Assembly: GCF_044647545.1 (NCBI RefSeq)
Contig: NZ_CP172818.1
From: Escherichia coli
GTDB taxonomy: Bacteria; Pseudomonadota; Gammaproteobacteria; Enterobacterales; Enterobacteriaceae
Length of the DNA stretch: 64,000 nt
Direction: 5' to 3' (one strand)
Shown in pieces: positions 9,718-56,253 of the stretch (position 1 is the stretch's first letter; each line of letters begins with the position of its first letter). The position numbers were made by a program, and so were the translations under genes. A model generated the notes under the pieces. It was not told the DNA's origin. It saw nothing but the letters and a program-made list of their open reading frames with translations, and did no database searches.

Positions 9718-11652
9718 TTACGCGACCGGGCGCGCAATAATGCTGCGGGTTTCCATGCGGACTTCGGCAATGGTGACGTCAATAACGTCAGTCACTTTGT
9801 AAGCCGTTTCACCTTTAATTTGTACAGTGCCGTTTTCCTGGCTGCAAACCAGTTCATCGCGCACAGCGTGTAAGAAAGGTGCCGGAATAAAGGCGATAGC
9901 GCCGTTATCAACCAAACGAACACGCATGCCGCCACGGCTGATATCGACAATTTCCGCCGCGAAACGGGTGTCGGTCCCGGCTTTGTCTTTCAGGAAGCGT
10001 GCGTATAACCAGTCGCCAACATCACGTTCTGCCATTCGGTTGAGACGGCGACGCTCGGCCATTTGGACAGTGATTTCATCCTGCGGACGCGTCGCAGTTT
10101 CGCCTTTGATAACCGCTTTCAGCAGACGGTGGTTGATCATGTCGCCATATTTACGGATCGGCGAAGTCCAGGTGGCGTATGCCTCCAGACCGAGGCCAAA
10201 GTGAGGACCGGGTTCAGTGCTAATTTCAGCAAATGACTGGAAGCGACGAATGCGGCTGTCGAGGAAACCAGTTGGTTGCGCATCCAGTTCACGACGCAGT
10301 TTGCAGAAACCGTCCAGCGTGAGCACTTCTTCGGCATCGACATGCAGACCGTGGGTTTTCAGCAACGCTGCCAGCGCGTCGGCATTCGCCGGATCAAAGC
10401 CCATATGCACGTTATAGATGCCAAAACCGAGCTTATCGCGCAGTACGCGGGCCGCACAAATGTTAGCGGCAATCATCGCTTCTTCGACGATACGGTTGGC
10501 AATGCGACGAGGCTCGGCGACGATATCCAGCACTTCACCTTTTTCACCGAGAATAAAGCGGTAATCCGGGCGATCTTTAAACACCAGTGCGTGGTTATGA
10601 CGCCACTCGCCGCGGCGTTGGCAAATTTGCGCTAGCAAACGGACTTGTTCGGCAATTGCTTCGCTTTCAGGCTGCCAGTCACCGGTATTTTCCAGCCAGT
10701 CAGAAACCTGGTCATACACCAGCTTCGCTTTGGATTCGATGGTGGCGGCAAAGAATTCGATATTATCTTCAATGGTGCCATCAGCGGAGAGCGTCATGCG
10801 GCATGCCAGTACCGGGCGGACTTCATTGGCGCGCAGTGAGCAGAGATCGTCAGAAAGCTCGCGAGGCAGCATAGGGATGTTGAAGCCAGGCAGATAGTTG
10901 GTGAATGCGCGAATTTTCGCGGCTTTGTCCAGCTTGCTGCCTTCAGCAATCCACGCGGTTGGATCGGCAATCGCCACAATCAGCTGAAGTTTGTCATCCG
11001 GCAACGCCTTAGCGAAAAGGGCGTCATCCATATCTTCTGTGCTGGCACTGTCGATGGTGACAAAATCCAGCGCAGTCAGATCTTCACGAACCAGACCTTC
11101 ATCGAGCATTTCGGTAGCGACGCCGTCTGGTGCTTCTTTTTCCAGATTATGGCGCGCAAGGGTAACCCACCACGGTACAAAGTGATCGTCACCAAAAGTG
11201 ATGTATTGTGTCAGTTCAGCATAGAAAGAACGATCGCCTTTCAGCGGATGACGGCGCATTTCGGCAACCGCCCAGTCGCCTTCTTTAAACTCGTGGTTCA
11301 GGCCACGGGCTGCGCGGCAAGGAATGGCGTCTTTTAAGAGTGGATGATCAGGAACGATGGCCAGACGGTCATTTTTGCCCTGAACTTTACCCACGAAACG
11401 AGTCAGGAACGGTTCAACCAGTTCTTCTGGCTCTGCGGATTCACGTTCTTTTTCACTGTGGATCACCGCGATAATTCGGTCGCCATGCATGACTTTTTTC
11501 ATCTGCGGCGGCGGAATGAAATAACTTTTTTGCGCGTCGACTTCCAGGAAGCCAAAGCCTTTTTCTGTGGCTTTTACCACCCCTTCAGCGCGTGGCGTCT
11601 GGGAATGCAGTTGCTGTTTAAGCTGCGCTAGCAGCGGGTTGTCCTGAAACAT
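9718..11652 (-). CDS. rnb: Exoribonuclease II (RNase II)
   Basis: 644-aa [18 protein letters not shown]...; cold-shock, RNB and S1 domains. Confidence 0.96.
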
Positions 11653-13767: not shown

Positions 13768-13932
13768 AGCTTTAATCCTTATTGTTGATGCTTGTTGTGC
13801 CTGAAAATCAGGCGATTCGTCGTTTTAGTAAACAGTACGAACAGATAAACGGTTATTATAATCAACCTGGCTGTGGGTGGCTATAGTTGCCAGGTCCGAC
13901 CGGAGCAGGCTGCGGCAGGGGGGGCGCTTTTC

Positions 13933-13971
13933 CCCTCACCCTAACCCTCTCCCCAGAGGGGCGAGGGGACC
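13933..13971. repeat. GC-rich palindromic repeat, copy L (TCACCCTAACCCTCTCCCCAGAGGGGCGAGGGG)
   Basis: Internal hairpin CCCTCT-CCCC-AGAGGG nested in CCCCTC...GAGGGG; an inverted, diverged copy lies at 14121..14150. Confidence 0.7.
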
Positions 13972-14047
13972 GTATTGTGCAAATATTGTTACCCCAGCAA
14001 CAAACAGGCTCATACAGCCCCTAACCCTTTCATGGCGATGGCTGGGA

Positions 14048-14086
14048 CGGTTCAGACCTTGCCGAATATTCTCCAGCACCGTCTCC
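14048..14086 (-). repeat. Degenerate duplicate of the last ~13 codons of ycjD
   Basis: 35/39 identical to 14154..14192 (the ycjD 3' end); the last 23 nt are exact. Confidence 0.75.
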
Positions 14087-14120
14087 ATGTTTTCACCACA
14101 ACAGCTATTCGGCTCGGTCT

Positions 14121-14150
14121 GCCCCCTCGCTCTTTCAGGGAGAGGGTGAC
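14121..14150. repeat. GC-rich palindromic repeat, copy R (inverted relative to copy L), overlapping the ycjD stop codon
   Basis: Reverse complement GTCACCCTCTCCCTGAAAGAGCGAGGGGGC shares the TCACCCT..CTCCC..AGAG..GCGAGGGG pattern with copy L; encodes the terminal SPSP-stop of YcjD. Confidence 0.7.
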
Positions 14151-14488
14151 CGGCGGTTCAGTTCCTGCAGAATATTCTCCAGCACCGTCTCCTCATTACA
14201 ATCAATCTCGTTATTCCAGAAACGCAGCACGGTCCAGCCCTGCGACTCAAGCCAGCTAGTGCGCCTGGAATCATAGGCAACTGCTAAATCATGCTGCCCA
14301 CCATCCAGCTCAACGACTACACGCGCCGAGCAGCAAGCAAAATCGAGAATGTAGCTCCCCACTGGATGTTGACGGCGAAATTTGAAATCACTAAAACGTC
14401 GGCTGCGAAGATATCGCCAGAGCTTTCGTTCCTGCAAAGTGAGATTGCGTCTTAAATCACGCGCATTTGATTTAATTTTATCTATCAC
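14135..14488 (-). CDS. ycjD: DUF559 protein YcjD (restriction-endonuclease-like fold), function unknown
   Basis: 117-aa ORF MIDKIKSNARDLRRNLTLQERKLWRYLR... Confidence 0.9.
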   Translation of the reverse strand: MIDKIKSNARDLRRNLTLQERKLWRYLRSRRFSDFKFRRQHPVGSYILDFACCSARVVVELDGGQHDLAVAYDSRRTSWLESQGWTVLRFWNNEIDCNEETVLENILQELNRRSPSP

Positions 14489-14555
14489 CTCATTCTGACA
14501 AGATTTAATCTTTTGTCAGAATGAGGTGAATAATCTGGAAGGAGGATTCAGAAGA

Positions 14556-15362
14556 TTAACGGTCCTTACGCCACGCATCCGCCGTCAATGCCTCGCCAAA
14601 ATGACCGGCGATCAGCCGTTTGGTGAGTTCATGCAGCGGCGATGCCAGCACATCCGCGGTGCTGCCTCGCTCGACAACCTCGCCCTGATGCATCACCAGC
14701 ACCTGGTCGCTAATGTGCTTCATCATTCCGATATGCTGGGTAACATAAATATACGAAATGCCCTGTTTTTCCTGTAACTCCAGCATCAGGTTAATCAACT
14801 GCGAACGCATCGACATATCCAGTGAGGCGAGGGCTTCATCGGCAATAATGACTTTTGGGCGCAATATCAGCGCGCGCGCCAGACCCAGACGCTGTTTTTG
14901 CCCGGGTGCCAACATATGCGGATAGTAACTGACGTGATCCGGTAGCAGCCCAACCATACGCATCGTTTCAATAATCTGTTTGCGACGCTGTTCCGGTTCC
15001 AGATCGGTGTTCAGACGCAGTGGAAAATCCAGAATTTGCGAGATACGTTGACGGGGATTCAACGAGGTCGAAGGATCCTGAAAAATCATGCGAATACGCT
15101 GACTGCGGAAGGAATAATCGCCAAAATGCAGCGGATGATCGTCAATCAATAACTCGCCGCTGGTAGGTTCTATCATTCCCGCCAGCATTTTTGCCAGCGT
15201 GGATTTACCCGAACCATTCTCGCCAATAATCGCCAGTGTCTGGCCTTCACGTAGCGTAAAGCTCAAGGGTTTTACCGCTTCTACGGTCTGACGACGAAAC
15301 CAGCCGGTCCGGTAGCGGAACGTTTTACTTAAATTACGCACTTCAAGTAGCGTTTCGATCAT
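14556..15362 (-). CDS. sapF: ABC transporter ATP-binding protein SapF
   Basis: 268-aa ORF with Walker A GENGSGKST and ABC signature LAPGQKQR. Confidence 0.95.
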   Translation of the reverse strand: MIETLLEVRNLSKTFRYRTGWFRRQTVEAVKPLSFTLREGQTLAIIGENGSGKSTLAKMLAGMIEPTSGELLIDDHPLHFGDYSFRSQRIRMIFQDPSTSLNPRQRISQILDFPLRLNTDLEPEQRRKQIIETMRMVGLLPDHVSYYPHMLAPGQKQRLGLARALILRPKVIIADEALASLDMSMRSQLINLMLELQEKQGISYIYVTQHIGMMKHISDQVLVMHQGEVVERGSTADVLASPLHELTKRLIAGHFGEALTADAWRKDR

Positions 15363-25196: not shown

Positions 25197-25344
25197 TCTT
25201 TTTGTTCTGTAAGCCGGGTAAGCGCAATGCGCCCGGCAATCATAAAGAATGTCGCCAGAAATAAACGGGCATACGGCCCGGGGATCTCTGCGCCCTGACG
25301 TTCACAAACTGCATATATCTGATAGACGTGAAACAGGAGTCATA

Positions 25345-32818: not shown

Positions 32819-34498
32819 ATGAAACAGAAAATTACGGATTACCTGGACGAAATCTACGGTGGAACATTTACCACAACTCATTTACAGAAACTTGTAACGC
32901 GTCTTGAGAGTGCGAAACGATTAATTACACTGCGACGTAAAAAACACTGGGATGAAAGTGATGTCGTGTTAATCACCTATGCCGATCAATTTCACAGTAA
33001 TGATTTAAAACCACTACCCACATTTAATCAGTTTTACCCTCAATGGCTGCAAAGCATTTTTTCACATGTTCATTTATTACCTTTTTATCCATGGTCATCT
33101 GATGATGGCTTTTCGGTAATTGATTATCAACAGGTCGCTAGTGAAGCGGGGGAGTGGCAGGATATTCAGCAACTCGGTGAATGCAGTCATTTAATGTTTG
33201 ATTTTGTCTGCAACCATATGTCGGCAAAAAGTGAATGGTTTAAAAACTATTTACAACAGCAGCCAGGTTTTGAAGATTTTTTTATTGCCGTTGACCCGCA
33301 AACCGATCTCAGCGTCGTCACTCGCCCGCGTGCGTTACCGTTATTAACGCCATTCCAGATGCGCGATCATTCAACGCGCCATTTATGGACCACCTTTAGT
33401 GACGATCAAATTGACCTGAATTACCGTAGCCCTGAAGTGTTACTGGCGATGGTGGATGTATTGCTGTGCTACCTGGAAAAGGGCGCAGAATATGTCCGTC
33501 TGGATGCCGTTGGCTTTATGTGGAAAGAGCCGGGAACAAGCTGCATCCATCTGGAAAAAACACATCTGATTATCAAACTGTTACGGTCGATTATTGATGA
33601 CGTAGCACCAGGTACAGTGATCATTACCGAGACCAATGTTCCGCACAGAGACAACATTGCTTACTTTGGCAACGGTGATGACGAAGCGCATATGGTGTAC
33701 CAGTTCTCGCTGCCGCCGCTGGTGCTGCATGCGGTGCAAAAACAGAACGTTGAGGCGCTTTGTGCGTGGGCGCAAAACCTGACACTACCTTCCAGCAACA
33801 CCACCTGGTTTAACTTCCTCGCCTCTCACGATGGCATCGGGCTTAACCCACTGCGTGGCTTGCTACCCGAAAGCGAAATATTAGCGCTGGTCGAGGCATT
33901 ACAGCAGGAAGGGGCATTAGTTAACTGGAAAAATAATCCCGACGGTACGCGTAGCCCGTATGAAATGAATGTCACTTATATGGATGCGTTAAACCGCCGC
34001 GAGAGTAGCGATGAAGAACGTTGCGCCAGGTTTATCCTTGCCCATGCGATTTTGTTAAGTTTCCCCGGTGTGCCAGCGATATATATTCAAAGTATTCTGG
34101 GCTCGCGTAATGATTACGCAGGTGTCGAAAAACTGGAATATAACCGTGCGATTAACCGTAAAAAATATTACAGTGAAGAGATCACGACCGAACTGAACAA
34201 TAAAACGACGTTAAGGCACGCGGTATATCATGAATTGTCGCGACTAATTAAAATTCGTCGAAGTCATAACGAGTTTCATCCAGATAATGATTTTACCATC
34301 GACACGGTTAATTCATCCGTAATGTGTATTCAAAGAAGCAACGCGGATGGTAATTGTCTGACAGGATTGTTTAATGTCAGTGAAAATATTCAGCATATAA
34401 ATATTACTGGCCTGCACGGTCGGGATCTGATTAGTGAAGTTGATATAGTGGGTAATGAAATAACGCTGCGCCCCTGGCAGGTTATGTGGATTAAATAA
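32819..34498 (+). CDS. ycjM: GH13 glycoside phosphorylase YcjM (glucosylglycerate phosphorylase)
   Basis: ORF 32792..34498; start at MKQKITDYLDE...; 559 aa; sucrose-phosphorylase-like. Confidence 0.92.
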   Translation: MKQKITDYLDEIYGGTFTTTHLQKLVTRLESAKRLITLRRKKHWDESDVVLITYADQFHSNDLKPLPTFNQFYPQWLQSIFSHVHLLPFYPWSSDDGFSVIDYQQVASEAGEWQDIQQLGECSHLMFDFVCNHMSAKSEWFKNYLQQQPGFEDFFIAVDPQTDLSVVTRPRALPLLTPFQMRDHSTRHLWTTFSDDQIDLNYRSPEVLLAMVDVLLCYLEKGAEYVRLDAVGFMWKEPGTSCIHLEKTHLIIKLLRSIIDDVAPGTVIITETNVPHRDNIAYFGNGDDEAHMVYQFSLPPLVLHAVQKQNVEALCAWAQNLTLPSSNTTWFNFLASHDGIGLNPLRGLLPESEILALVEALQQEGALVNWKNNPDGTRSPYEMNVTYMDALNRRESSDEERCARFILAHAILLSFPGVPAIYIQSILGSRNDYAGVEKLEYNRAINRKKYYSEEITTELNNKTTLRHAVYHELSRLIKIRRSHNEFHPDNDFTIDTVNSSVMCIQRSNADGNCLTGLFNVSENIQHINITGLHGRDLISEVDIVGNEITLRPWQVMWIK

Positions 34499-34511: not shown

Positions 34512-35804
34512 ATGATTAAATCAAAAATCGTGCTGTTATCAGCACTGGTTTCCTGCGCCCTGATTTCAGGTTGTAAAGAAGAAAATAAAACGAATGTCTC
34601 CATTGAGTTTATGCATTCTTCGGTGGAACAGGAACGCCAGGCGGTAATTAGTCAGTTAATTGCGCGTTTTGAAAAAGAAAACCCGGGCATCACCGTTAAA
34701 CAAGTGCCCGTGGAAGAAGACGCCTATAACACCAAAGTCATTACCCTTTCACGTAGTGGTTCGCTGCCGGAAGTGATCGAAACCAGCCATGACTACGCCA
34801 AAGTTATGGACAAAGAGCAGCTTATCGATCGCCTGGCGGTTGCCACGGTCATCAGCAACGTCGGTGAAGGCGCGTTCTACGATGGCGTTCTGCGGATTGT
34901 GCGCACCGAAGATGGTAGCGCATGGACCGGTGTTCCTGTCAGCGCCTGGATTGGCGGCATCTGGTATCGCAAAGATGTGCTGGCAAAAGCCGGGCTGGAT
35001 GAGCCGAAAAACTGGCAACAGTTGCTGGATGTCGCACAGAAACTGAACGATCCGGCGAATAAAAAATACGGTATTGCACTGCCGACGGCAGAAAGCGTGC
35101 TGACGGAGCAATCTTTCTCCCAGTTTGCGTTATCCAATCAGGCTAACGTCTTTAACGCCGAAGGCAAAATCACCCTTGATACCCCAGAGATGATGCAGGC
35201 GCTGACCTATTACCGCGACCTTGCTGCCAACACCATGCCGGGTTCTAACGACATTATGGAAGTGAAAGACGCCTTTATGAACGGCACCGCGCCGATGGCG
35301 ATTTACTCCACCTATATCCTTCCGGCTGTGATTAAAGAAGGCGACCCGAAAAATGTCGGTTTCGTGGTGCCAACCGAGAAAAACTCGGCGGTCTACGGCA
35401 TGTTGACCTCGCTAACCATTACCGCCGGGCAAAAGAGCGAAGAGACGGAGGCGGCGGAAAAATTTGTCACCTTTATGGAGCAGGCGGACAACATTGCCGA
35501 CTGGGTGATGATGTCGCCAGGCGCGGCGCTGCCGGTGAACAAAGCGGTTGTGACGACTGCCACCTGGAAAGATAACGACGTGATTAAGGCGCTGGGAGAC
35601 TTGCCGAATCAGTTGATTAGCGAACTGCCAAATATTCAGGTCTTTGGCGCAGTAGGGGATAAAAACTTTACCCGCATGGGCGATGTGACGGGGTCTGGCG
35701 TGGTGAGTTCAATGGTGCATAACGTCACCGTGGGGAAAGCCGATCTCCCTGGCACGCTGCAAGCGAGCCAGAAAAAGCTGGATGAACTGATCGAACAGCA
35801 CTAA
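34512..35804 (+). CDS. ycjN: ABC transporter periplasmic sugar-binding protein YcjN
   Basis: 430-aa ORF with lipoprotein-type signal (LISGC). Confidence 0.92.
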   Translation: MIKSKIVLLSALVSCALISGCKEENKTNVSIEFMHSSVEQERQAVISQLIARFEKENPGITVKQVPVEEDAYNTKVITLSRSGSLPEVIETSHDYAKVMDKEQLIDRLAVATVISNVGEGAFYDGVLRIVRTEDGSAWTGVPVSAWIGGIWYRKDVLAKAGLDEPKNWQQLLDVAQKLNDPANKKYGIALPTAESVLTEQSFSQFALSNQANVFNAEGKITLDTPEMMQALTYYRDLAANTMPGSNDIMEVKDAFMNGTAPMAIYSTYILPAVIKEGDPKNVGFVVPTEKNSAVYGMLTSLTITAGQKSEETEAAEKFVTFMEQADNIADWVMMSPGAALPVNKAVVTTATWKDNDVIKALGDLPNQLISELPNIQVFGAVGDKNFTRMGDVTGSGVVSSMVHNVTVGKADLPGTLQASQKKLDELIEQH

Positions 35805-35824
35805 ACCCAGGACAGGAATCCGCA

Positions 35825-36706
35825 ATGAACAGGCTTTTTTCAGGTCGTTCCGATATGCCTTTTGCACTGCTGCTTCTCGCGCCCAGCTTATTACTGCTGG
35901 GCGGTCTGGTGGCGTGGCCGATGGTGTCGAATATCGAAATCAGTTTTTTACGTCTGCCGCTCAATCCCAACATCGAGTCAACCTTTGTTGGGGTGAGTAA
36001 CTATGTGCGTATTCTCTCCGATCCCGGCTTCTGGCACTCGCTGTGGATGACGGTCTGGTATACCGCGCTGGTGGTGGCGGGCAGCACCGTGCTCGGGCTG
36101 GCCGTGGCGATGTTTTTCAACCGCGAGTTCCGCCTGCGCAAAACCGCGCGTTCGCTGGTGATCCTCTCCTACGTAACGCCGTCTATTTCGCTGGTGTTCG
36201 CCTGGAAATACATGTTCAACAACGGTTACGGCATTGTGAACTACCTCGGCGTCGATCTTCTGCATCTCTATGAGCAGGCACCGCTGTGGTTCGATAATCC
36301 GGGCAGTAGCTTTGTGCTGGTGGTGCTGTTCGCCATCTGGCGCTACTTCCCCTATGCCTTTATTTCGTTTCTGGCGATTTTGCAGACCATCGACAAATCG
36401 CTGTACGAAGCGGCAGAGATGGATGGCGCTAATGCCTGGCAACGGTTTCGTATCGTCACGCTGCCCGCGATTATGCCGGTCCTGGCGACGGTGGTGACCC
36501 TGCGCACCATCTGGATGTTCTACATGTTCGCGGATGTTTATCTGCTGACGACCAAGGTCGATATTCTCGGTGTCTATCTCTACAAAACCGCCTTTGCCTT
36601 TAATGACTTAGGGAAAGCGGCGGCGATCTCGGTGGTGCTCTTCATCATTATTTTCGCTGTCATTCTGCTGACCAGGAAACGGGTGAACCTCAATGGCAAC
36701 AAATAA
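35825..36706 (+). CDS. ycjO: ABC transporter permease YcjO (MalF-like)
   Basis: 293-aa polytopic membrane ORF. Confidence 0.92.
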   Translation: MNRLFSGRSDMPFALLLLAPSLLLLGGLVAWPMVSNIEISFLRLPLNPNIESTFVGVSNYVRILSDPGFWHSLWMTVWYTALVVAGSTVLGLAVAMFFNREFRLRKTARSLVILSYVTPSISLVFAWKYMFNNGYGIVNYLGVDLLHLYEQAPLWFDNPGSSFVLVVLFAIWRYFPYAFISFLAILQTIDKSLYEAAEMDGANAWQRFRIVTLPAIMPVLATVVTLRTIWMFYMFADVYLLTTKVDILGVYLYKTAFAFNDLGKAAAISVVLFIIIFAVILLTRKRVNLNGNK

Positions 36707-37535
36707 ACGCACACTCAGTCGCATCGGTTTTTACTGCGGGCTGGCGCTGTTTCTCATCATCACGCTGTTTCCGTTTTTTGTGATGCTGATGACCTCGTTC
36801 AAGAGCGCAAAAGAGGCGATCTCGCTGCATCCTACGCTGCTGCCGCAGCAGTGGACGCTGGAGCATTATGTCGACATTTTTAACCCGATGATTTTCCCGT
36901 TTGTCGATTATTTCCGTAACAGCATGGTGGTGTCGGTAGTTTCATCCGTGATAGCAGTATTTCTCGGCATTCTCGGGGCTTACGCGCTTTCCCGCCTGCG
37001 CTTTAAAGGGCGAATGACCATCAACGCCAGCTTCTACACGGTGTACATGTTCTCCGGCATTTTGCTGGTGGTGCCGCTGTTCAAAATCATCACCGCGCTT
37101 GGCGTTTACGACACCGAGATGGCGCTGATCATCACCATGGTTACGCAAACCCTGCCTACCGCCGTGTTTATGCTGAAAAGCTACTTCGACACCATCCCCG
37201 ATGAAATCGAAGAAGCGGCGATGATGGATGGCCTCAACCGGCTGCAAATCATCTTCCGCATCACGGTACCGCTGGCGATGTCCGGGCTGATATCCGTATT
37301 CGTCTACTGCTTTATGGTGGCATGGAACGACTATCTGTTTGCGTCGATTTTCCTCTCCAGCGCCAGCAATTTCACCTTACCAGTCGGCCTGAACGCGCTG
37401 TTCAGTACGCCTGATTACATCTGGGGACGGATGATGGCGGCCTCGCTGGTGACCGCATTGCCGGTGGTGATTATGTATGCGCTTTCGGAGCGTTTTATTA
37501 AGAGTGGTTTGACCGCCGGTGGCGTGAAGGGCTAA
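36693..37535 (+). CDS. ycjP: ABC transporter permease YcjP (MalG-like)
   Basis: 280-aa polytopic membrane ORF; overlaps the ycjO stop. Confidence 0.92.
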   Translation: MATNKRTLSRIGFYCGLALFLIITLFPFFVMLMTSFKSAKEAISLHPTLLPQQWTLEHYVDIFNPMIFPFVDYFRNSMVVSVVSSVIAVFLGILGAYALSRLRFKGRMTINASFYTVYMFSGILLVVPLFKIITALGVYDTEMALIITMVTQTLPTAVFMLKSYFDTIPDEIEEAAMMDGLNRLQIIFRITVPLAMSGLISVFVYCFMVAWNDYLFASIFLSSASNFTLPVGLNALFSTPDYIWGRMMAASLVTALPVVIMYALSERFIKSGLTAGGVKG

Positions 37536-37565: not shown

Positions 37566-38618
37566 ATGAAAAAGTTAGTAGCCACAGCACCGCGCGTTGC
37601 CGCGCTGGTTGAGTATGAAGATCGGGCGATTTTAGCCAATGAAGTGAAGATCCGCGTGCGTTTCGGCGCACCGAAACACGGAACGGAAGTGGTCGACTTC
37701 CGCGCCGCCAGCCCGTTTATCGATGAAGACTTTAACGGCGAGTGGCAGATGTTCACCCCGCGTCCCGCAGATGCGCCGCGCGGCATTGAGTTTGGCAAAT
37801 TCCAGCTTGGCAACATGGTGGTTGGCGACATTATCGAGTGCGGCAGCGACGTTACCGACTACGCGGTGGGCGACAGCGTATGCGGCTACGGCCCGCTCTC
37901 CGAGACGGTCATCATTAACGCAGTGAATAACTACAAGCTGCGCAAAATGCCGCAAGGCAGCTCCTGGAAAAACGCCGTCTGTTACGACCCGGCGCAGTTT
38001 GCCATGAGCGGCGTGCGCGATGCCAACGTACGCGTAGGGGATTTTGTCGTGGTGGTAGGGCTTGGCGCGATCGGTCAAATTGCCATCCAACTGGCAAAAC
38101 GCGCTGGCGCGTCGGTGGTAATTGGCGTCGATCCTATTACCCGTCGTTGTGAGATTGCCCGTCGCCACGGTGCGGATTTCTGTCTTAACCCCATTGGCGC
38201 TGACGTAGGTAAAGAGATCAAAACGCTGACCGGCAAGCAGGGTGCCGATGTGATTATCGAAACCAGCGGCTACGCCGACGCGCTGCAATCGGCACTTCGC
38301 GGCCTGGCATATGGCGGCACCATCTCGTATGTCGCATTTGCCAAACCATTTGCCGAAGGTTTCAACCTCGGACGTGAAGCCCATTTCAACAACGCCAAAA
38401 TTGTCTTCTCTCGTGCGTGCAGTGAACCGAACCCGGATTATCCGCGCTGGAGTCGCAAGCGTATTGAAGAAACCTGCTGGGAATTGCTGATGAACGGTTA
38501 TCTCAATTGTGAAGATTTGATCGACCCGGTGGTGACCTTTGCCAATAGCCCGGAAAGCTACATGCAGTATGTCGATCAGCATCCGGAACAGAGCATCAAA
38601 ATGGGCGTTACGTTTTAA
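37566..38618 (+). CDS. ycjQ: Zn-dependent sugar dehydrogenase YcjQ (MDR family)
   Basis: 350-aa ORF with Rossmann motif GLGAIGQ. Confidence 0.92.
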   Translation: MKKLVATAPRVAALVEYEDRAILANEVKIRVRFGAPKHGTEVVDFRAASPFIDEDFNGEWQMFTPRPADAPRGIEFGKFQLGNMVVGDIIECGSDVTDYAVGDSVCGYGPLSETVIINAVNNYKLRKMPQGSSWKNAVCYDPAQFAMSGVRDANVRVGDFVVVVGLGAIGQIAIQLAKRAGASVVIGVDPITRRCEIARRHGADFCLNPIGADVGKEIKTLTGKQGADVIIETSGYADALQSALRGLAYGGTISYVAFAKPFAEGFNLGREAHFNNAKIVFSRACSEPNPDYPRWSRKRIEETCWELLMNGYLNCEDLIDPVVTFANSPESYMQYVDQHPEQSIKMGVTF

Positions 38619-38635
38619 TTCAAAGGAATGAAAAA

Positions 38636-39424
38636 ATGAAAATAGGCACACAGAATCAGGCATTCTTTCCGGAAAATATTCTGGAGAAATTTCGTTATAT
38701 CAAAGAGATGGGCTTCGATGGTTTTGAGATTGACGGCAAACTGCTGGTCAACAACATCGAAGAAGTCAAAGCGGCAATCAAAGAAACCGGCTTACCGGTG
38801 ACCACCGCCTGCGGCGGCTATGACGGCTGGATTGGCGACTTTATCGAAGAGCGTCGTCTTAATGGCTTAAAGCAGATCGAACGCATTCTTGAAGCGCTGG
38901 CCGAAGTGGGCGGTAAAGGTATCGTCGTTCCTGCTGCATGGGGCATGTTTACCTTCCGTTTACCGCCGATGACCTCGCCGCGCAGCCTGGATGGCGACCG
39001 CAAAATGGTGAGTGATTCCCTGCGCGTACTGGAGCAGGTGGCAGCGCGTACCGGAACCGTGGTGTATCTCGAACCGTTAAACCGTTATCAGGATCACATG
39101 ATCAACACCCTCGCCGATGCCCGCCGTTACATCGTCGAAAACGATCTTAAACATGTACAGATTATCGGCGATTTCTATCACATGAATATCGAAGAAGATA
39201 ACCTGGCGCAGGCGTTGCACGACAACCGCGACTTGCTCGGTCATGTGCATATTGCCGATAACCATCGTTACCAGCCGGGCAGCGGCACCCTCGATTTCCA
39301 CGCGCTGTTTGAACAGCTGCGCGCCGATAACTATCAGGGTTATGTGGTGTATGAAGGGCGTATCCGGGCAGAAGATCCTGCCCAGGCGTACCGTGATTCT
39401 TTGGCCTGGGTGCGTACCTGCTAA
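38636..39424 (+). CDS. ycjR: Sugar phosphate isomerase/epimerase YcjR (xylose-isomerase-like TIM barrel)
   Basis: 262-aa ORF. Confidence 0.92.
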   Translation: MKIGTQNQAFFPENILEKFRYIKEMGFDGFEIDGKLLVNNIEEVKAAIKETGLPVTTACGGYDGWIGDFIEERRLNGLKQIERILEALAEVGGKGIVVPAAWGMFTFRLPPMTSPRSLDGDRKMVSDSLRVLEQVAARTGTVVYLEPLNRYQDHMINTLADARRYIVENDLKHVQIIGDFYHMNIEEDNLAQALHDNRDLLGHVHIADNHRYQPGSGTLDFHALFEQLRADNYQGYVVYEGRIRAEDPAQAYRDSLAWVRTC

Positions 39425-39433
39425 GAGGTCTTT

Positions 39434-40489
39434 GTGAAAAGTGCAATGACAAGCTCTCCGCTGCGAGTCGCGATCATAGGCGCGGGCCAGGTGGCGGATA
39501 AAGTTCATGCTTCGTACTACTGCACCCGCAACGATCTGGAACTGGTGGCTGTCTGTGACAGCCGCCTTTCCCAGGCGCAGGCGCTGGCAGAAAAATACGG
39601 GAATGCATCCGTGTGGGACGATCCGCAGGCCATGCTGCTGGCGGTGAAACCTGATGTGGTTAGCGTCTGCTCACCTAACCGTTTTCATTACGAACATACC
39701 CTGATGGCGCTGGAAGCGGGCTGCCATGTGATGTGCGAAAAACCGCCCGCCATGACGCCAGAACAAGCGCGGGAAATGTGCGATACCGCGCGCAAACAGG
39801 GCAAGGTGCTGGCCTACGACTTTCACCATCGTTTTGCACTCGATACGCAACAGCTGCGTGAACAGGTGACCAACGGCGTTTTGGGAGAGATTTACGTTAC
39901 CACCGCCCGCGCCCTGCGTCGCTGCGGTGTTCCCGGCTGGGGTGTCTTTACTAATAAAGAATTGCAGGGCGGCGGGCCGCTTATTGACATCGGCATTCAT
40001 ATGCTGGATGCGGCGATGTATGTACTGGGCTTTCCGGCGGTGAAAAGCGTGACCGCGCATAGCTTTCAAAAGATCGGAACGCAAAAGAGCTGCGGTCAAT
40101 TTGGCGAGTGGGACCCGGCAACCTACAGCGTCGAAGATTCGCTGTTTGGCACCATTGAATTTCATAACGGCGGCATTCTGTGGCTTGAGACCTCATTTGC
40201 ACTCAACATCCGCGAACAGTCGATTATGAACGTCAGCTTTTGTGGTGATAAAGCCGGGGCGACGCTGTTTCCAGCACATATCTACACCGATAACAACGGT
40301 GAGTTAATGACGCTGATGCAACGGGAAATGGCAGACGACAACCGTCATCTGCGCAGTATGGAAGCCTTTATCAACCACGTACAAGGTAAGCCCGTGATGA
40401 TAGCCGACGCCGAGCAGGGGTACATCATCCAGCAACTGGTGGCGGCGTTGTATCAATCCGCAGAAACAGGAACGCGTGTGGAATTATGA
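39434..40489 (+). CDS. ycjS: Gfo/Idh/MocA-family NAD-dependent oxidoreductase YcjS
   Basis: 351-aa ORF, GTG start; N-terminal Rossmann VAIIGAGQVA. Confidence 0.92.
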   Translation: MKSAMTSSPLRVAIIGAGQVADKVHASYYCTRNDLELVAVCDSRLSQAQALAEKYGNASVWDDPQAMLLAVKPDVVSVCSPNRFHYEHTLMALEAGCHVMCEKPPAMTPEQAREMCDTARKQGKVLAYDFHHRFALDTQQLREQVTNGVLGEIYVTTARALRRCGVPGWGVFTNKELQGGGPLIDIGIHMLDAAMYVLGFPAVKSVTAHSFQKIGTQKSCGQFGEWDPATYSVEDSLFGTIEFHNGGILWLETSFALNIREQSIMNVSFCGDKAGATLFPAHIYTDNNGELMTLMQREMADDNRHLRSMEAFINHVQGKPVMIADAEQGYIIQQLVAALYQSAETGTRVEL

Positions 40490-42752
40490 CCAGGCCAGTA
40501 ACGTTAACGGAACCCCATTTCAGCCAGCATACCCTGAACAAGTATGCTTCGCTGATGGCGCAGGGGAACGGCTATCTTGGGCTTCGCGCCAGCCATGAAG
40601 AAGATTATACGCGCCAGACACGCGGTATGTATCTGGCGGGGCTTTATCATCGCGCGGGGAAAATGACATCAACGAACTGGTGAACCTGCCTGACGTCATA
40701 GGGATGGAGATTACCTTGAATGGTGAACTTTTTGCGCTATCCCGCGAAACGTGGCAGCGCGAGCTTGACTTCGCCAGTGGTGAATTACGTCGCAATGTCG
40801 TCTGGTCTTCAGCCAGCGGCGCACGTTATGCCATTGCCAGCCGTCGCTTTGTTTCGGCAGAACAACTGCCGCTGATGGCGCTGGAAATCAGCATTACGCC
40901 GCTGGACGCTGACGCGTCAGTGCTGATTTCAACAGGCATTGACGCCACGCAAACCAACCACGGACGACAACATCTCGACGAAACCCAGGTGCGGGTGTTT
41001 GGTCAGCATTTGATGCAGGGGATCTATACCACTCAGGATGGACGCAGTGATGTGGCCATCAGCTGTTGCTGCCAGGTGAGCGGTGACGTGCAGCAATGCT
41101 ATACCGCCAAAGAGCGCCGCTTGCTGCAACATACCAGTGCACAACTACCTGCGGGCAAAACGCTGACGCTGCAAAAACGGGTGTGGATCGACTGGCGGGA
41201 CGACAGACACGTCGCTTTAGACGAGTGGGGTAGTGCATCGCTTCGTCAGCTTGAAATGTGTGTACAGCAGAGTTACGACCAACTTCTTGCAGCATCCACA
41301 GAAAACTGGCGTCAATGGTGGCAGAAACGTCGTATCACGGTAAACGGTGGCGATGCGCACGATCAGCAAGCGTTAGATTATGCGCTTTATCACCTACGCA
41401 TCATGACGCCTGCTCACGACGAGCGCAGCAGTATTGCGGCAAAAGGTTTGACCGGGGAAGGCTACAAAGGCCACGTTTTCTGGGATACGGAAGTATTTTT
41501 ACTGCCGTTCCATCTGTTTAGCGAACCGACGATTGCCAGAAGTTTACTGCGTTATCGCTGGCACAACTTGCCAGGCGCGCAGGAGAAAGCGCGACGCAAC
41601 GGCTGGCAGGGCGCGCTATTTCCGTGGGAAAGCGCGCGCAGCGGCGAAGAAGAGACGCCGGAATTTGCCGCCATTAACATTCGCACCGGGCTGCGGCAAA
41701 AAGTGGCCTCGGCGCAGGCGGAACATCATCTGGTCGCCGATATCGCCTGGGCGGTTGTTCAATACTGGCAGACCACGGGGGATGAAAGTTTCATTGCTCA
41801 TGAAGGCATGGCGCTACTTCTGGAAACTGCAAAGTTCTGGATTAGCCGCACGGTGAGGGTTAACGACCGTCTGGAAATTCATGATGTTATTGGGCCAGAC
41901 GAATATACCGAACATGTCAATAATAACGCCTTCACCAGCTATATGGCGTATTACAACGTCCAGCAGGCGCTGAACATCGCTCGTCAATTTGGCTGTAGCG
42001 ACGATGCGTTTATCCATCGCGCCGAAATGTTCCTTAAAGAACTGCGGCTGCCAGAAATTCAGCCCGACCGCGTTTTGCCGCAGGATGATTCGTTTATGGC
42101 GAAACCAGCGATTAATCTGGCGAAATACAAAGCGGCGGCGGGGAAGCAAACCATTCTGCTGGATTATTCACGCGCAGAAGTGAACGAGATGCAGATCCTC
42201 AAACAAGCTGATGTGGTGATGCTCAATTACATGCTGCCGGAGCAGTACTCAGCGGCATCGTGTCTTGCCAATCTGCAATTTTATGAACCGCGCACCATTC
42301 ACGACTCTTCACTGAGTAAAGCGATCCACGGCATTGTTGCCGCACGCTGTGGCCTGTTGGCGCAAAGTTATCAGTTCTGGCGGGAGGGGACTGAAATCGA
42401 TCTTGGTGCTGATCCGCATAGCTGTGATGACGGTATCCACGCTGCCGCAACTGGCGCAATCTGGTTGGGGGCGATTCAGGGTTTTGCCGGGGCGAGCGTG
42501 CGCAACGGTGAATTACATCTCAATCCGGCGTTACCTGAGCAGTGGCAACAGTTGTCTTTCCCTCTGTTCTGGCAGGGCTGTGAATTACAGGTCACTCTTG
42601 ACGCGCAGCGCATTGCGATTCGGACTTCTGCGCCAGTTTCACTGCGTTTGAACGGTCAGCTTATTTCAGTCTCTGAAGAATCTGTTTTCTGTTTAGGGGA
42701 TTTTATTTTGCCCTTCAATGGGACCGCTACCACGCATCAGGAGGGTGAATGA
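40486..42752 (+). pseudogene. ycjT: GH65 glycoside phosphorylase YcjT (kojibiose phosphorylase), interrupted by a 1-nt frameshift near 40656..40663
   Basis: ORFs 40486..40683 (65 aa) and 40680..42752 (690 aa) are two halves of one gene in frames +1 and +3; one extra base in the GGGGAAAA run would give a continuous ~755-aa protein. Confidence 0.8.
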
Positions 42753-43408
42753 AACTGCAAGGGGTAATTTTCGATCTGGATGGAGTAATCACCGATACCG
42801 CACATCTGCATTTCCAGGCGTGGCAGCAGATTGCCGCTGAAATTGGCATCAGCATTGATGCGCAGTTTAACGAATTCCTAAAAGGGATCAGCCGCGATGA
42901 GTCCCTGCGGCGAATTCTGCAGCACGGGGGTAAAGAGGGCGATTTTAACCCACAGGAACGGGCGCAACTGGCGTATCGCAAAAATCTGCTTTACGTCCAC
43001 TCACTGCGCGAACTGACGGTTAATGCTGTGCTGCCTGGCATTCACAATTTGCTGGTAGAGCTCCGAGCACAGCAGATTCCGGTTGGGCTGGCTTCTGTCT
43101 CCCTGAATGCGCCGACGATTTTAGCAGCGCTGGAGCTGCGCGAGTTTTTCACCTTCTGCGCGGACGCTTCCCAACTCAAAAATTCGAAACCGGACCCGGA
43201 AATCTTTCTCGCCGCCTGTGCAGGGCTGGGCGTGCCGCCACAGGCATGTATCGGCATTGAAGATGCGCAGGCGGGCATTGAAGCCATTAACGCCAGCGGT
43301 ATGCGCTCGGTGGGGATCGGCGCGGGCTTAACCGGGGCGCAATTGCTGTTGCCCTCAACGGAATCTCTCACATGGTCGCGGTTATCGGCCTTCTGGCAAA
43401 ACGTATAG
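42749..43408 (+). CDS. ycjU: Beta-phosphoglucomutase YcjU (HAD superfamily)
   Basis: 219-aa ORF with HAD motif I ([10 protein letters not shown]). Confidence 0.95.
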
Positions 43409-43421
43409 CAAAGGAATCAAC

Positions 43422-44504
43422 ATGGCTCAGCTTTCGTTACAACATATTCAAAAAATCTACGATAACCAGGTGCATGTGGTGAAGGACTTCAACCTGGAAA
43501 TTGCCGATAAAGAGTTCATTGTCTTTGTCGGTCCGTCAGGCTGCGGTAAATCGACTACGCTGCGCATGATTGCCGGGCTTGAGGAGATCAGCGGTGGCGA
43601 TCTGTTGATCGACGGCAAACGAATGAATGACGTTCCAGCCAAAGCGCGCAATATCGCGATGGTGTTCCAGAACTACGCGCTGTATCCGCATATGACGGTC
43701 TACGACAACATGGCGTTTGGCCTGAAGATGCAAAAAATCGCCAAAGAGGTGATTGATGAGCGGGTTAACTGGGCGGCGCAAATCCTCGGCCTGCGTGAGT
43801 ACCTGAAACGCAAGCCGGGCGCGCTTTCTGGCGGGCAACGCCAGCGTGTGGCGCTCGGACGGGCGATTGTGCGCGAAGCGGGCGTGTTTTTAATGGATGA
43901 ACCGCTCTCTAACCTTGATGCCAAGCTGCGCGTACAAATGCGCGCAGAGATCAGCAAGCTGCATCAGAAACTGAACACCACCATGATCTACGTGACCCAC
44001 GATCAGACCGAAGCGATGACCATGGCGACGCGGATTGTGATTATGAAGGATGGGATTGTTCAGCAGGTCGGTGCGCCGAAAACGGTTTATAACCAACCTG
44101 CGAATATGTTTGTTGCCGGATTTATTGGATCGCCTGCGATGAATTTTATTCGCGGCACGATCGATGGCGATAAATTCGTTACGGAAACGCTTAAATTAAC
44201 CATACCCGAAGAGAAATTAGCGGTTCTGAAAACACAGGAAAGTTTGCATAAGCCCATCGTGATGGGAATACGCCCGGAAGATATTCATCCGGACGCGCAA
44301 GAGGAAAATAACATTTCCGCCAAAATTAGCGTGGCAGAATTAACCGGTGCGGAATTTATGCTCTACACCACGGTTGGGGGGCACGAGTTAGTGGTCCGTG
44401 CTGGTGCGTTAAATGATTATCATGCAGGAGAAAATATCACTATTCATTTTGATATGACTAAATGTCATTTCTTTGATGCAGAAACGAAAATAGCAATTCG
44501 CTAA
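43422..44504 (+). CDS. ycjV: ABC transporter ATP-binding protein YcjV (MalK-like), full length
   Basis: 360-aa ORF with Walker A GPSGCGKST, signature LSGGQRQR and a C-terminal TOBE-like extension. Confidence 0.92.
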   Translation: MAQLSLQHIQKIYDNQVHVVKDFNLEIADKEFIVFVGPSGCGKSTTLRMIAGLEEISGGDLLIDGKRMNDVPAKARNIAMVFQNYALYPHMTVYDNMAFGLKMQKIAKEVIDERVNWAAQILGLREYLKRKPGALSGGQRQRVALGRAIVREAGVFLMDEPLSNLDAKLRVQMRAEISKLHQKLNTTMIYVTHDQTEAMTMATRIVIMKDGIVQQVGAPKTVYNQPANMFVAGFIGSPAMNFIRGTIDGDKFVTETLKLTIPEEKLAVLKTQESLHKPIVMGIRPEDIHPDAQEENNISAKISVAELTGAEFMLYTTVGGHELVVRAGALNDYHAGENITIHFDMTKCHFFDAETKIAIR

Positions 44505-44548
44505 ATACAGGGGGAAGGCATTCCCCCAGAATAATACAAGGAACAATA

Positions 44549-45454
44549 ATGAAAAAGTTATTACCCTGTACCGCACTGGTGATGTGTGCGGGAATGGCTT
44601 GCGCACAGGCCGAGGAAAAGAACGACTGGCACTTTAATATCGGCGCGATGTACGAAATAGAAAACGTCGAAGGTTATGGCGAAGATATGGATGGGCTCGC
44701 GGAGCCTTCTGTCTATTTTAATGCCGCCAACGGGCCGTGGAGAATTTCTCTGGCCTATTATCAGGAAGGGCCGGTAGATTATAGCGCGGGTAAACGTGGA
44801 ACGTGGTTTGATCGCCCGGAGCTGGAGGTACATTATCAGTTCCTCGAAAGCGATGATTTCAGTTTCGGTCTGACTGGTGGTTTCCGTAATTATGGTTATC
44901 ACTACGTTGATGAACCGGGTAAAGACACGGCGAATATGCAGCGTTGGAAAATCGCGCCAGACTGGGATGTGAAACTGACTGACGATTTACGTTTCAACGG
45001 TTGGTTATCGATGTATAAATTTGCCAACGATCTGAACACGACCGGTTACGCTGATACCCGAGTCGAAACGGAAACAGGTCTGCAATATACCTTCAACGAA
45101 ACGGTTGCTTTGCGAGTGAACTATTATCTCGAGCGCGGCTTCAATATGGACGACAGCCGCAATAACGGTGAGTTTTCCACGCAAGAAATTCGTGCCTATT
45201 TGCCGCTGACGCTCGGCAACCACTCGGTGACGCCGTATACGCGCATTGGGCTGGATCGCTGGAGTAACTGGGACTGGCTGGATGATATTGAACGTGAAGG
45301 CCATGATTTTAACCGTGTGGGGTTATTTTACGGTTATGATTTCCAGAATGGTCTTTCCGTTTCGCTGGAATACGCGTTTGAGTGGCAGGATCACGACGAA
45401 GGCGACAGCGATAAATTCCATTATGCAGGTGTCGGCGTAAATTACTCGTTCTGA
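44549..45454 (+). CDS. ompG: Outer-membrane porin OmpG
   Basis: 301-aa ORF with signal peptide and beta-barrel terminal (VNYSF). Confidence 0.95.
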   Translation: MKKLLPCTALVMCAGMACAQAEEKNDWHFNIGAMYEIENVEGYGEDMDGLAEPSVYFNAANGPWRISLAYYQEGPVDYSAGKRGTWFDRPELEVHYQFLESDDFSFGLTGGFRNYGYHYVDEPGKDTANMQRWKIAPDWDVKLTDDLRFNGWLSMYKFANDLNTTGYADTRVETETGLQYTFNETVALRVNYYLERGFNMDDSRNNGEFSTQEIRAYLPLTLGNHSVTPYTRIGLDRWSNWDWLDDIEREGHDFNRVGLFYGYDFQNGLSVSLEYAFEWQDHDEGDSDKFHYAGVGVNYSF

Positions 45455-45503: not shown

Positions 45504-46502
45504 TTATTTCAACGACATATGCGTAGCAACGGTAATATTTTGTGGTGACGGTTTTCCGGCAATTAGCTGGAATAATAACTCGCAGCTTTGTTGACCTAAC
45601 TCCTGCGTCGGAACATCGATGCCGCCTGGTGCAGGCGTTAATATAAACGACAGCGTTTCATTACTATAACCCACCACCGCTAACTGCTGCGGAATAGCAA
45701 TGTTTTTCTCTGCCGCCGCACGATAAATACTCATTAATTTCAGGCTGTCAGTAGCAAACACTGCCTCAGGCAACGGTGACTGGCTTAATAATTCCCGTGC
45801 GGCTTGCAAGGCTGTTTCATGGGTATAACCGCCGTCAACAATCCATTCATCACGCACTGCAATATTATGCGTAGCCAGGCTTTGCTTATAACCATTTACC
45901 CGATCCACTGAAACATGAACATCAAGCGGCGCATGCAGGCAGGCAATATTCTTATGCCCGCTTTCAATTAACGCATTGGTCAGCGCAATACTGTCGCCAT
46001 AATTATCGGTATCGACGGAATAAACATGGCTGTATTGACCTTCAACTTTGCCAATTACCACTACCGGGATCTCGTATTTGTCGAGTTGTGCAAAGAAGGA
46101 TTCATCGGCAGGCGAACTTAGCATAATAATGCCTTTAATCATTTTCTGCTTAATTTTGCTTTCGCATTTTTGCAGATCTTCTGCCGGATTGTGCGACGTT
46201 TGTAATATCACGTCGAAACCTTCTTCTTCCGCTTTGGCGGTGATGGCATGCAAAACTTCAGAGAAAAACGGATTACCCGCCGTAGTTTTGGTCGAACGGG
46301 TAGAAATCACCATAATGGCATCAAAACCCGAAGAGGTCAGCGCGCGTGCCAGCTTGTTTGGTTGATACTGTAATTCTTCAATGGCCCGTAACACTTTTTC
46401 GCGCGCTTCCGGGGAGATATTGGTTTGCTTATTCAGCACGCGTGATACGGTGGATTTTGATACGCCTGCAACCCTGGCAATATCATAAATAGTAGGGGAC
46501 AT
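45504..46502 (-). CDS. ycjW: LacI-family transcriptional regulator YcjW
   Basis: 332-aa ORF; N-terminal HTH ([21 protein letters not shown]). Confidence 0.93.
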
Positions 46503-53138: not shown

Positions 53139-53318
53139 GATCGTCTCTGGTTCAGGAAGTATTACAGGCAGTGTTGTGCAAATTTTGCGGATTATCAAAT
53201 CCTTTTCTTCAACGCTATGTTATCGATCTTTTCACTTTTTTGCCGGAAGTTGTTTGCATTTCTTTAAGGCGAAACAAATAATTACGCATCAATTTTAATG
53301 TCGGTTAGAGGGAAACTT

Positions 53319-54932
53319 ATGAAGCACTCTGTTTCAGTCACGTGTTGTGCGCTGTTGGTCAGCAGCATTTCTCTTTCGTATGCTGCTGAAGTTCCGAGCG
53401 GCACAGTACTGGCAGAGAAGCAGGAGCTGGTGCGCCACATTAAAGATGAGCCTGCGTCGCTGGATCCCGCTAAAGCCGTGGGCCTGCCAGAGATTCAGGT
53501 CATTCGCGATCTGTTTGAAGGACTGGTGAATCAGAACGAGAAAGGGGAGATTGTCCCCGGCGTTGCGACTCAGTGGAAAAGTAATGACAACCGTATCTGG
53601 ACATTTACCCTGCGCGATAACGCAAAATGGGCGGATGGCACTCCGGTAACGGCGCAAGATTTTGTCTACAGCTGGCAACGTCTGGTGGACCCAAAAACAT
53701 TGTCGCCATTTGCATGGTTTGCCGCGCTGGCGGGAATCAACAACGCACAGGCGATTATTGATGGTAAAGCCACGCCTGACCAGCTTGGCGTCACCGCAGT
53801 TGATGCCCATACTTTGAAAATCCAGCTTGATAAACCGTTGCCGTGGTTTGTGAATTTAACCGCTAACTTTGCCTTCTTCCCGGTGCAAAAAGCCAACGTA
53901 GAAAGCAGTAAAGAGTGGACGAAACCCGGAAATCTGATCGGCAATGGCGCTTATGTTCTTAAAGAGCGCGTAGTCAATGAAAAACTGGTCGTAGTGCCGA
54001 ATACCCATTATTGGGATAACGCCAAAACGGTACTGCAAAAAGTGACCTTCCTGCCAATTAATCAGGAATCCGCAGCCACTAAGCGTTACCTCGCGGGGGA
54101 TATTGATATCACTGAATCCTTCCCGAAAAATATGTATCAGAAGCTGTTGAAGGATATTCCGGGGCAGGTTTATACGCCGCCGCAGCTCGGGACCTATTAT
54201 TATGCGTTTAACACGCAAAAAGGGCCGACGGCAGATCAGCGCGTTCGCCTGGCATTAAGTATGACGATAGATCGCCGCCTGATGACCGAAAAAGTATTAG
54301 GGACGGGCGAAAAGCCAGCGTGGCATTTTACACCAGATGTTACCGCGGGATTTACGCCGGAACCTTCGCCGTTTGAACAAATGAGTCAGGAAGAACTGAA
54401 TGCGCAGGCAAAAACTTTGTTGAGCGCAGCTGGTTATGGTCCGCAAAAACCGCTGAAGCTGACGCTTTTGTATAACACTTCAGAAAACCATCAAAAAATT
54501 GCGATTGCTGTAGCATCAATGTGGAAAAAGAACCTTGGCGTAGATGTTAAATTGCAAAATCAGGAATGGAAAACCTATATCGATAGCCGTAACACCGGCA
54601 ATTTTGATGTTATCCGCGCCTCGTGGGTAGGGGATTATAATGAACCCTCCACTTTCCTGACATTATTAACGTCAACGCATTCCGGGAATATTTCACGCTT
54701 TAACAATCCGGCATATGACAAAGTTCTGGCCCAGGCATCGACGGAAAATACCGTTAAAGCGCGTAATGCCGATTACAACGCGGCAGAAAAAATCCTCATG
54801 GAGCAAGCACCGATTGCACCAATTTATCAATATACCAATGGACGATTAATCAAGCCGTGGCTGAAAGGTTATCCCATTAATAACCCTGAAGATGTGGCGT
54901 ACAGTCGGACTATGTATATTGTGAAGCATTGA
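53319..54932 (+). CDS. mppA: Periplasmic murein tripeptide-binding protein MppA
   Basis: ORF 53298..54932; start at internal ATG after GAGGG (MKHSVSVTCCALLVSS...) giving 537 aa; signal peptide. Confidence 0.95.
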   Translation: MKHSVSVTCCALLVSSISLSYAAEVPSGTVLAEKQELVRHIKDEPASLDPAKAVGLPEIQVIRDLFEGLVNQNEKGEIVPGVATQWKSNDNRIWTFTLRDNAKWADGTPVTAQDFVYSWQRLVDPKTLSPFAWFAALAGINNAQAIIDGKATPDQLGVTAVDAHTLKIQLDKPLPWFVNLTANFAFFPVQKANVESSKEWTKPGNLIGNGAYVLKERVVNEKLVVVPNTHYWDNAKTVLQKVTFLPINQESAATKRYLAGDIDITESFPKNMYQKLLKDIPGQVYTPPQLGTYYYAFNTQKGPTADQRVRLALSMTIDRRLMTEKVLGTGEKPAWHFTPDVTAGFTPEPSPFEQMSQEELNAQAKTLLSAAGYGPQKPLKLTLLYNTSENHQKIAIAVASMWKKNLGVDVKLQNQEWKTYIDSRNTGNFDVIRASWVGDYNEPSTFLTLLTSTHSGNISRFNNPAYDKVLAQASTENTVKARNADYNAAEKILMEQAPIAPIYQYTNGRLIKPWLKGYPINNPEDVAYSRTMYIVKH

Positions 54933-56014: not shown

Positions 56015-56253
56015 TGTTTTATCAGGCTCCTCCAGATAATTGTCGTCATGCCGGAAACCCCTGGCGGGACTATTTTACCGCGACAATTCATTCAGATCAT
56101 CAATAGTCAGGGAAGGAAGTAGCAACTCTAACTAATCAATACGTTGATTGTAAATCCAGCTAAGAGGTGAGGTTTTCAGAGCAGACAACGGTGAAATGTC
56201 ATGGTATTGTTACGTTTAGGTAACAAGAAATTTGTCTGCACAAGGATTACATC

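Follow-up and report, generated by a model that had tools for sequence, protein, structure and literature searches.

An intact ycjV transporter ATPase gene in an Escherichia coli ycj operon and its frameshifted ycjV/ymjB counterpart in K-12

We analysed a stretch of 64,000 nucleotides from Escherichia coli (contig NZ_CP172818.1), referred to here as the window, which carries the ycj operon. The structure of this operon, its repression by YcjW and the action of kojibiose as effector have been described (PMC6599011), and the make-up of the gene cluster is given in the papers on YcjN. On the + strand of the window lie, in order, ycjM (glucosylglycerate phosphorylase; 32819-34498), ycjN (binding protein) with ycjO and ycjP (permeases; together 34512-37535), ycjQ, ycjR and ycjS (guloside/glucoside dehydrogenases and epimerase; 37566-40489), ycjT (kojibiose phosphorylase, GH65; 40486-42752), ycjU/pgmB (beta-phosphoglucomutase; 42749-43408), ycjV (43422-44504) and ompG (monomeric porin; 44549-45454), the last gene of the operon. 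The gene for the LacI-family repressor of the operon, ycjW (role from PMC6599011), is found on the - strand at 45504-46502. Every MG1655 gene from ycjM to ycjW maps full length onto the window. According to this mapping and, beyond ycjM, the list of open reading frames, ycjM, N, O, P, Q, R, S, U, ompG and ycjW are all intact, with ORF lengths equal to those of MG1655. ycjT, at 2267 nt versus 2268 nt elsewhere, meets a stop at codon 66. An earlier reading of this DNA, made from the sequence only, had raised the question of whether the ycjNOP genes are intact in both strains; all three proved to be so, in the window as well as in MG1655. The 12.6-kb island was present at a coverage of at least 80% in 4943 of 5426 complete E. 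coli genomes (91%), while about 9% were without most of it.

The ycjV ORF (43422-44504, + strand) starts with ATG and extends over 1083 nt, encoding 360 amino acids with no internal stop. The ycjU stop is 13 nt upstream of this ATG, and an AAGGA Shine-Dalgarno sequence lies between the two. The translation contains, in the correct order, the complete set of NBD motifs by which ABC nucleotide-binding proteins are recognized: Walker A, GPSGCGKS (residues 37-44; 43530-43553); the Q-loop, VFQ (81-83); the ABC signature, LSGGQ (135-139; 43824-43838); Walker B with the catalytic Glu, VFLMDE (155-160; 43884-43901); the D-loop, SNLD (163-166); and the H-loop, THD (192-194). Pfam placed ABC_tran at residues 21-162 (110.5 bits, cut-off 25), followed by a C-terminal regulatory domain (44127-44474), also seen in the alignment to the MsmX structure 6yir, made up of OB_MalK (PF17912; residues 236-288; 54.9 bits, cut-off 27) and TOBE_2 (PF08402; residues 282-351; 39.8 bits, cut-off 21). 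The sequence-only reading, which had described a 360-residue MalK-like ATPase with Walker A, ABC signature and a C-terminal regulatory extension, was thus borne out by the ORF, the motifs and Pfam alike.

The predicted protein scored 485.5 bits, above the cut-off of 432, with the NCBIfam model of the UgpC-type subfamily (NF008653), and 431.3 bits, below the cut-off of 568, with the MalK equivalog model (NF008233); YcjV is therefore a MalK paralogue rather than MalK itself. The assignment of the predicted product as an ABC-transporter ATP-binding protein of the MalK/UgpC/MsmX type is unambiguous from sequence. Its orthology to other ycjV genes is indicated by its position between pgmB/ycjU and ompG, a gene order identical to that of the other E. 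coli genomes listed, and by an identity of 96.5% to the MG1655 gene and 99.9% to that of strain FDAARGOS_497. The protein belongs to a 90%-identity cluster of 3686 members, of which 14 of the 15 listed are 360 amino acids long. In the spacer that separates the end of ycjV from ompG we noted a perfect 7-bp stem-loop, GGGGGAA-GGCA-TTCCCCC (44510-44527), with no T-run after it. Judging from the sequence, this hairpin might serve to stabilise the mRNA or as an attenuator inside the operon.

We compared YcjV with its known relatives. The full-length E. coli YcjV of FDAARGOS_497 (WP_000057972.1) is encoded at the same pgmB-ycjV-ompG locus, is also 360 amino acids long and its gene is one nucleotide away from that of the window, the single private substitution being E356K. 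Another full-length form, WP_000057985.1, is the one used by Leisico et al. in 2020 (PMC7658222), and the purified full-length E. coli protein has been reported to be active as an ATPase (PMC7658222). Among solved structures the best match to YcjV was MsmX of B. subtilis (PDB 6yir; E=4e-148), a multitask sugar-importer ATPase, in an alignment that spans all 360 YcjV residues, including the C-terminal HFFD.ET..IR tail; the identity between the two proteins is 64% (PMC7658222). YcjV, in contrast to MsmX, is encoded in a dedicated operon beside its own permeases. It cannot replace MsmX in B. subtilis and is without the charged residues proposed as a multitask signature (PMC7658222). With E. coli MalK (PDB 1q12, 2r6g), the ATPase of the maltose transporter, YcjV shares the NBD and the C-terminal OB/TOBE regulatory domain, and structures of MsmX, AlgS and MalK all align to the full-length protein.

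The genes for the likely importer partners, ycjN, ycjO and ycjP, lie in the same gene string as ycjV, and from gene order and family we infer that YcjV pairs with YcjNOP. A YcjV homodimer would then power a sugar importer composed of the binding protein YcjN and the permease YcjO/YcjP, encoded in the YcjW-repressed ycjMNOPQRSTUV-ompG operon, with OmpG giving the sugar passage through the outer membrane. Going by the annotated products, YcjT and YcjU convert kojibiose to glucose and glucose-6-phosphate, YcjM acts on glucosylglycerate, and YcjQRS interconvert gulosides and glucosides. The ycj literature accessible to us holds no report of a transport assay for YcjNOPV with any substrate.

The K-12 gene was described in the sequence-only reading as a truncated pseudogene with its leftover annotated as ymjB, and the MG1655 reference agrees: in NC_000913.3, ycjV (b1318; 1380821-1381789) and ymjB (b4524; 1381789-1381902) are adjacent and both annotated as pseudogenes. 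Together they are DNA orthologous to the window ycjV, with the same start and stop positions. Pairwise alignment of the window gene (1083 nt) with MG1655 ycjV+ymjB (1082 nt), the comparison by which this description was to be checked, gave 37 substitutions over 1082 aligned bases and a single indel, so that MG1655 ycjV is not the same 360-residue ORF. The indel falls in a homopolymer at codons Gly319-Gly320, where the window reads GGGGGG (44376-44381, + strand; hereafter G6) and keeps its frame open to residue 360, and MG1655 has five Gs (G5), which splits the gene into ycjV and ymjB. The K-12 ycjV product is 322 amino acids long and ends in TTVGGTS, the reading frame being lost for everything after residue 320; the remainder of the TOBE domain can be read in MG1655 in the +1 frame only, and it is this stretch that bears the ymjB annotation. 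The C-terminal strands missing from the K-12 product are conserved with MsmX in the alignment to 6yir. The loss of one G from the G6 run, presumably by replication slippage, produced the K-12 pseudogene pair, and through the frameshift the C-terminal OB/TOBE regulatory domain lacks its final 40 residues.

The frequency of the two alleles was determined with probes of 39 and 40 nt centred on the G-run. Every 28-nt megablast seed must cross the run, and the G5 probe cannot seed on a G6 genome, nor the G6 probe on a G5 genome. In the 5426 complete E. coli genomes the G6 probe found 4608 matches and the G5 probe 371. Such short probes miss genomes with SNPs near the run; however, the two counts sum to 4979, exactly the number of genomes holding at least 80% of the ycjV region, which argues that few if any were lost. 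Of the locus-bearing genomes, 92.5% consequently have a ycjV whose frame is kept at the run. These numbers make the intact gene the ancestral majority state and K-12 the exception. The implication of the sequence-only reading that an intact ycjV is special to this strain did not, therefore, survive the comparison. We are confident, with little room for doubt, that 43422-44504 is an ordinary, ancestral and predicted functional ycjV allele, and that the K-12 ycjV/ymjB pair is the derived state.

Among 40 spread matches listed, G5 was carried by K-12 derivatives, including MG1655, DH10B, BW25113, J53, HB101, JM109, MC4100 and NEB Turbo, and by OkiPb bovine isolates. The wild G5 carriers identified form one clone, consisting of the human isolate 08-00022 and ten Okinawan bovine OkiPb isolates (loci at NZ_AP042480.1 1539815-1540896 and in NZ_CP013662.1; labelled 'frameshifted' in RefSeq). 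The ycjV of this clone, on a SNP background other than that of K-12, has 5 differences from the MG1655 gene, and no fewer than 17 further genomes match the clone fully except that they have G6. From these sequences, the G5 of the 08-00022/OkiPb clone looks like a second, independent slip at the same run. We also noted sporadic IS1-family insertions in ycjV, namely in AVS0756, CUWW10 and the K-12 derivatives ER1821R and ER2683, which split the gene into parts annotated as 'ABC transporter ATP-binding protein' and 'TOBE domain-containing protein'.

The ycjT gene, which the sequence-only reading had called frameshifted, does carry a frameshift: a run of five As (A5) in the clone-mates of the window strain is four As (A4) at 40660-40663 (+ strand), a private 1-bp deletion that brings in the stop mentioned above. 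A probe specific for A4 matched none of the 5426 complete genomes, against 211 for an A5 probe of otherwise equal sequence. FDAARGOS_497, Ecol_881, MS6198 and ECONIH1 are among at least 25 genomes that gave an identical score across the island, which measures 12637 bases in them and 12636 in the window. Two differences separate the window from FDAARGOS_497 within the island, the base in the ycjT A-run and one SNP in ycjV. The latter is a private G-to-A change at 44487 (+ strand), identified by alignment to MG1655, FDAARGOS_497 and MsmX, that causes the E356K substitution; residue 356 is Glu in MG1655, FDAARGOS_497 and B. subtilis MsmX, and Lys in the window. Over the 49.4-kb alignment containing the island, the window and FDAARGOS_497, its nearest relative, are set apart by 7 indel events and 2 SNPs, and all the indels are deletions in the window. 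MG1655, taken as outgroup, agrees with FDAARGOS_497 at the four indel sites where it can be aligned, and the window alleles are therefore derived there.

Besides the one in ycjT, the comparison with FDAARGOS_497 shows private deletions of 1-4 bp in the window at 25240, 45493, 53230-53231 and 56126-56127, the further events numbering six, all intergenic. MG1655 is alignable at three of the four intergenic deletion sites, and the window allele is derived in those. The only SNPs in the approximately 56.7 kb compared are at 10452, 44487 and 47364 (the last in ycjX). The excess of private small deletions suggests an imperfect consensus quality of the window.

Since the ycjT deletion is private and sits in a window with such an excess, it may be an assembly error. 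In our judgement there is an even chance that the ycjT frameshift, and possibly also E356K of YcjV, is an error of the assembly consensus, typically a long-read homopolymer deletion, and that the island is in fact fully intact. A ratio of 7 indels to 2 SNPs within a clone is far from usual real divergence and fits long-read consensus errors, the ycjT lesion sits in a homopolymer, and its A4 allele is shared with none of the complete genomes searched. In addition, the exact YcjV protein of the window (WP_400165231.1) is on record from one contig only, of 4.5 Mb, and its WP_ accession is recent, both in keeping with a long-read draft. The distribution of the indels, however, speaks for real mutations. 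Six of the seven are intergenic despite the mostly coding sequence, a pattern not expected of random errors, barring frame-aware or reference-guided polishing; moreover, runs of at least three identical bases account for just one of the seven, and two others are complex events (GTA to T and ATTAG to T). The ycjT frameshift is thus equally likely to be a genuine mutation and an assembly error.

Two other origins of these changes were considered. Errors in FDAARGOS_497 instead of the window are rejected, given the agreement of MG1655 with FDAARGOS_497 at the four alignable sites and the 211 genomes that share A5. A mismatch-repair-deficient mutator is an unlikely origin of the private changes, given the single indel in a run of at least three bases and the two complex multi-base events.

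A broader and rather unlikely alternative is that the cryptic ycj island is decaying differently in different lineages, each gaining its own lesions, so that this strain would truly have lost YcjT and kept the ATPase, and K-12 the reverse. Such a process would account for the 1-bp deletion and early stop in the window ycjT, the frameshift in K-12 ycjV and the independent hit on the same G-run in a wild clone, the IS1 insertions in ycjV described above, the absence of most of the island from roughly 9% of complete genomes, and the intergenic placement of six of the seven private indels, as for real mutations under selection. The allele counts nevertheless point the other way. With A4 in none of the 5426 genomes, against 211 with the A5 background, and with at least 25 clone-mates sharing an identical island score, the ycjT lesion is at most a singleton mutation at a tip. 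The other eleven genes of the island, ycjV counted, are all intact, and the retention of the island in 91% of genomes, together with a ycjV in frame in 92.5% of those bearing the locus, amounts to conservation; the preponderance of indels over SNPs, all of them window deletions and derived wherever the outgroup can be aligned, also argues against it. The proposal of the sequence-only reading that this strain carries a different set of lesions in the island is, accordingly, literally true of the two sequences compared, but we found no evidence of a patterned decay.

We reject as highly improbable the idea that the G6 run of ycjV is a contingency locus at which reversible slippage toggles the importer ATPase (phase variation): although the change from G6 to G5 occurred on two independent occasions, once in K-12 and once in the 08-00022/OkiPb clone, in whose background at least 17 otherwise identical genomes have G6, only two G5 lineages were identified among the 4979 locus-bearing genomes, G5 and G6 together fill all of these genomes and leave no room for G7 or G4, six bases are short for a phase-variable tract, and in K-12 derivatives G5 has stayed fixed for decades, reversion being nowhere apparent among the matches listed.

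For the window, then, the reading of ycjV as the ordinary, intact allele carries little significance in itself, since an intact ycjV is found in about 92% of the E. coli genomes with the locus. The main facts about the gene are already known: the K-12 pseudogene stands in the reference annotation, and full-length YcjV is present in RefSeq and has been studied biochemically. New but minor are the measured frequencies of the alleles, the second, independent slip, and the two private changes, in ycjT and at E356K, which are of uncertain authenticity. The window is also an example of how homopolymer indels private to a draft assembly can be mistaken for strain-specific pseudogenes.

The K-12 allele may matter more for experiments on the operon. 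MG1655 is reported not to grow when kojibiose is its only source of carbon (PMC6599011). It is conceivable, though we regard it as a long shot, that the ycjV frameshift, and not the enzymes, explains both the failure of MG1655 on kojibiose and the fact that the substrate used by the ycj pathway in nature has been elusive. If this were true, the genuine substrate of the pathway would be taken up and used for growth by wild strains with an intact ycjV (such as the clone-mates, or the window strain should its ycjT lesion be an artefact), and functional work on the ycj operon should leave K-12 or use a repaired G6 allele. The frameshift in the K-12 transporter ATPase is not mentioned in the ycj functional papers accessible to us (PMC7658222, PMC6599011 and the YcjN papers). 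The published functional work on the operon that was accessible to us was all done in K-12, which has the frameshifted ATPase, and experiments on substrate uptake and growth should therefore use the G6 allele.

Several further differences were seen elsewhere in the window. In the fabI-sapF interval with ycjD (13823-14560), the window has about 2 differences from MG1655 in approximately 750 bp, between flanking genes that are 93-97% identical; at the same fabI-sapF position FDAARGOS_497 carries a 7.9-kb island with a TetR regulator, an RND efflux pump, an outer-membrane factor and an MFS transporter. mpaA and mppA (about 53150-53330) are adjacent in the window and in FDAARGOS_497, and in K-12 ymjC, ymjD, ycjY and pgrR are inserted between them. 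Finally, at 56120-56135 the window shows a private complex change from CAACATTAGCTAAC to CAACTCTAAC, exactly at the site of IS5F between ynaI and ynaJ in MG1655. Both IS5 target tetramers, TTAG and CTAA, are present in the ancestral sequence of this site, and the change could be a coincidence, an error or a footprint.
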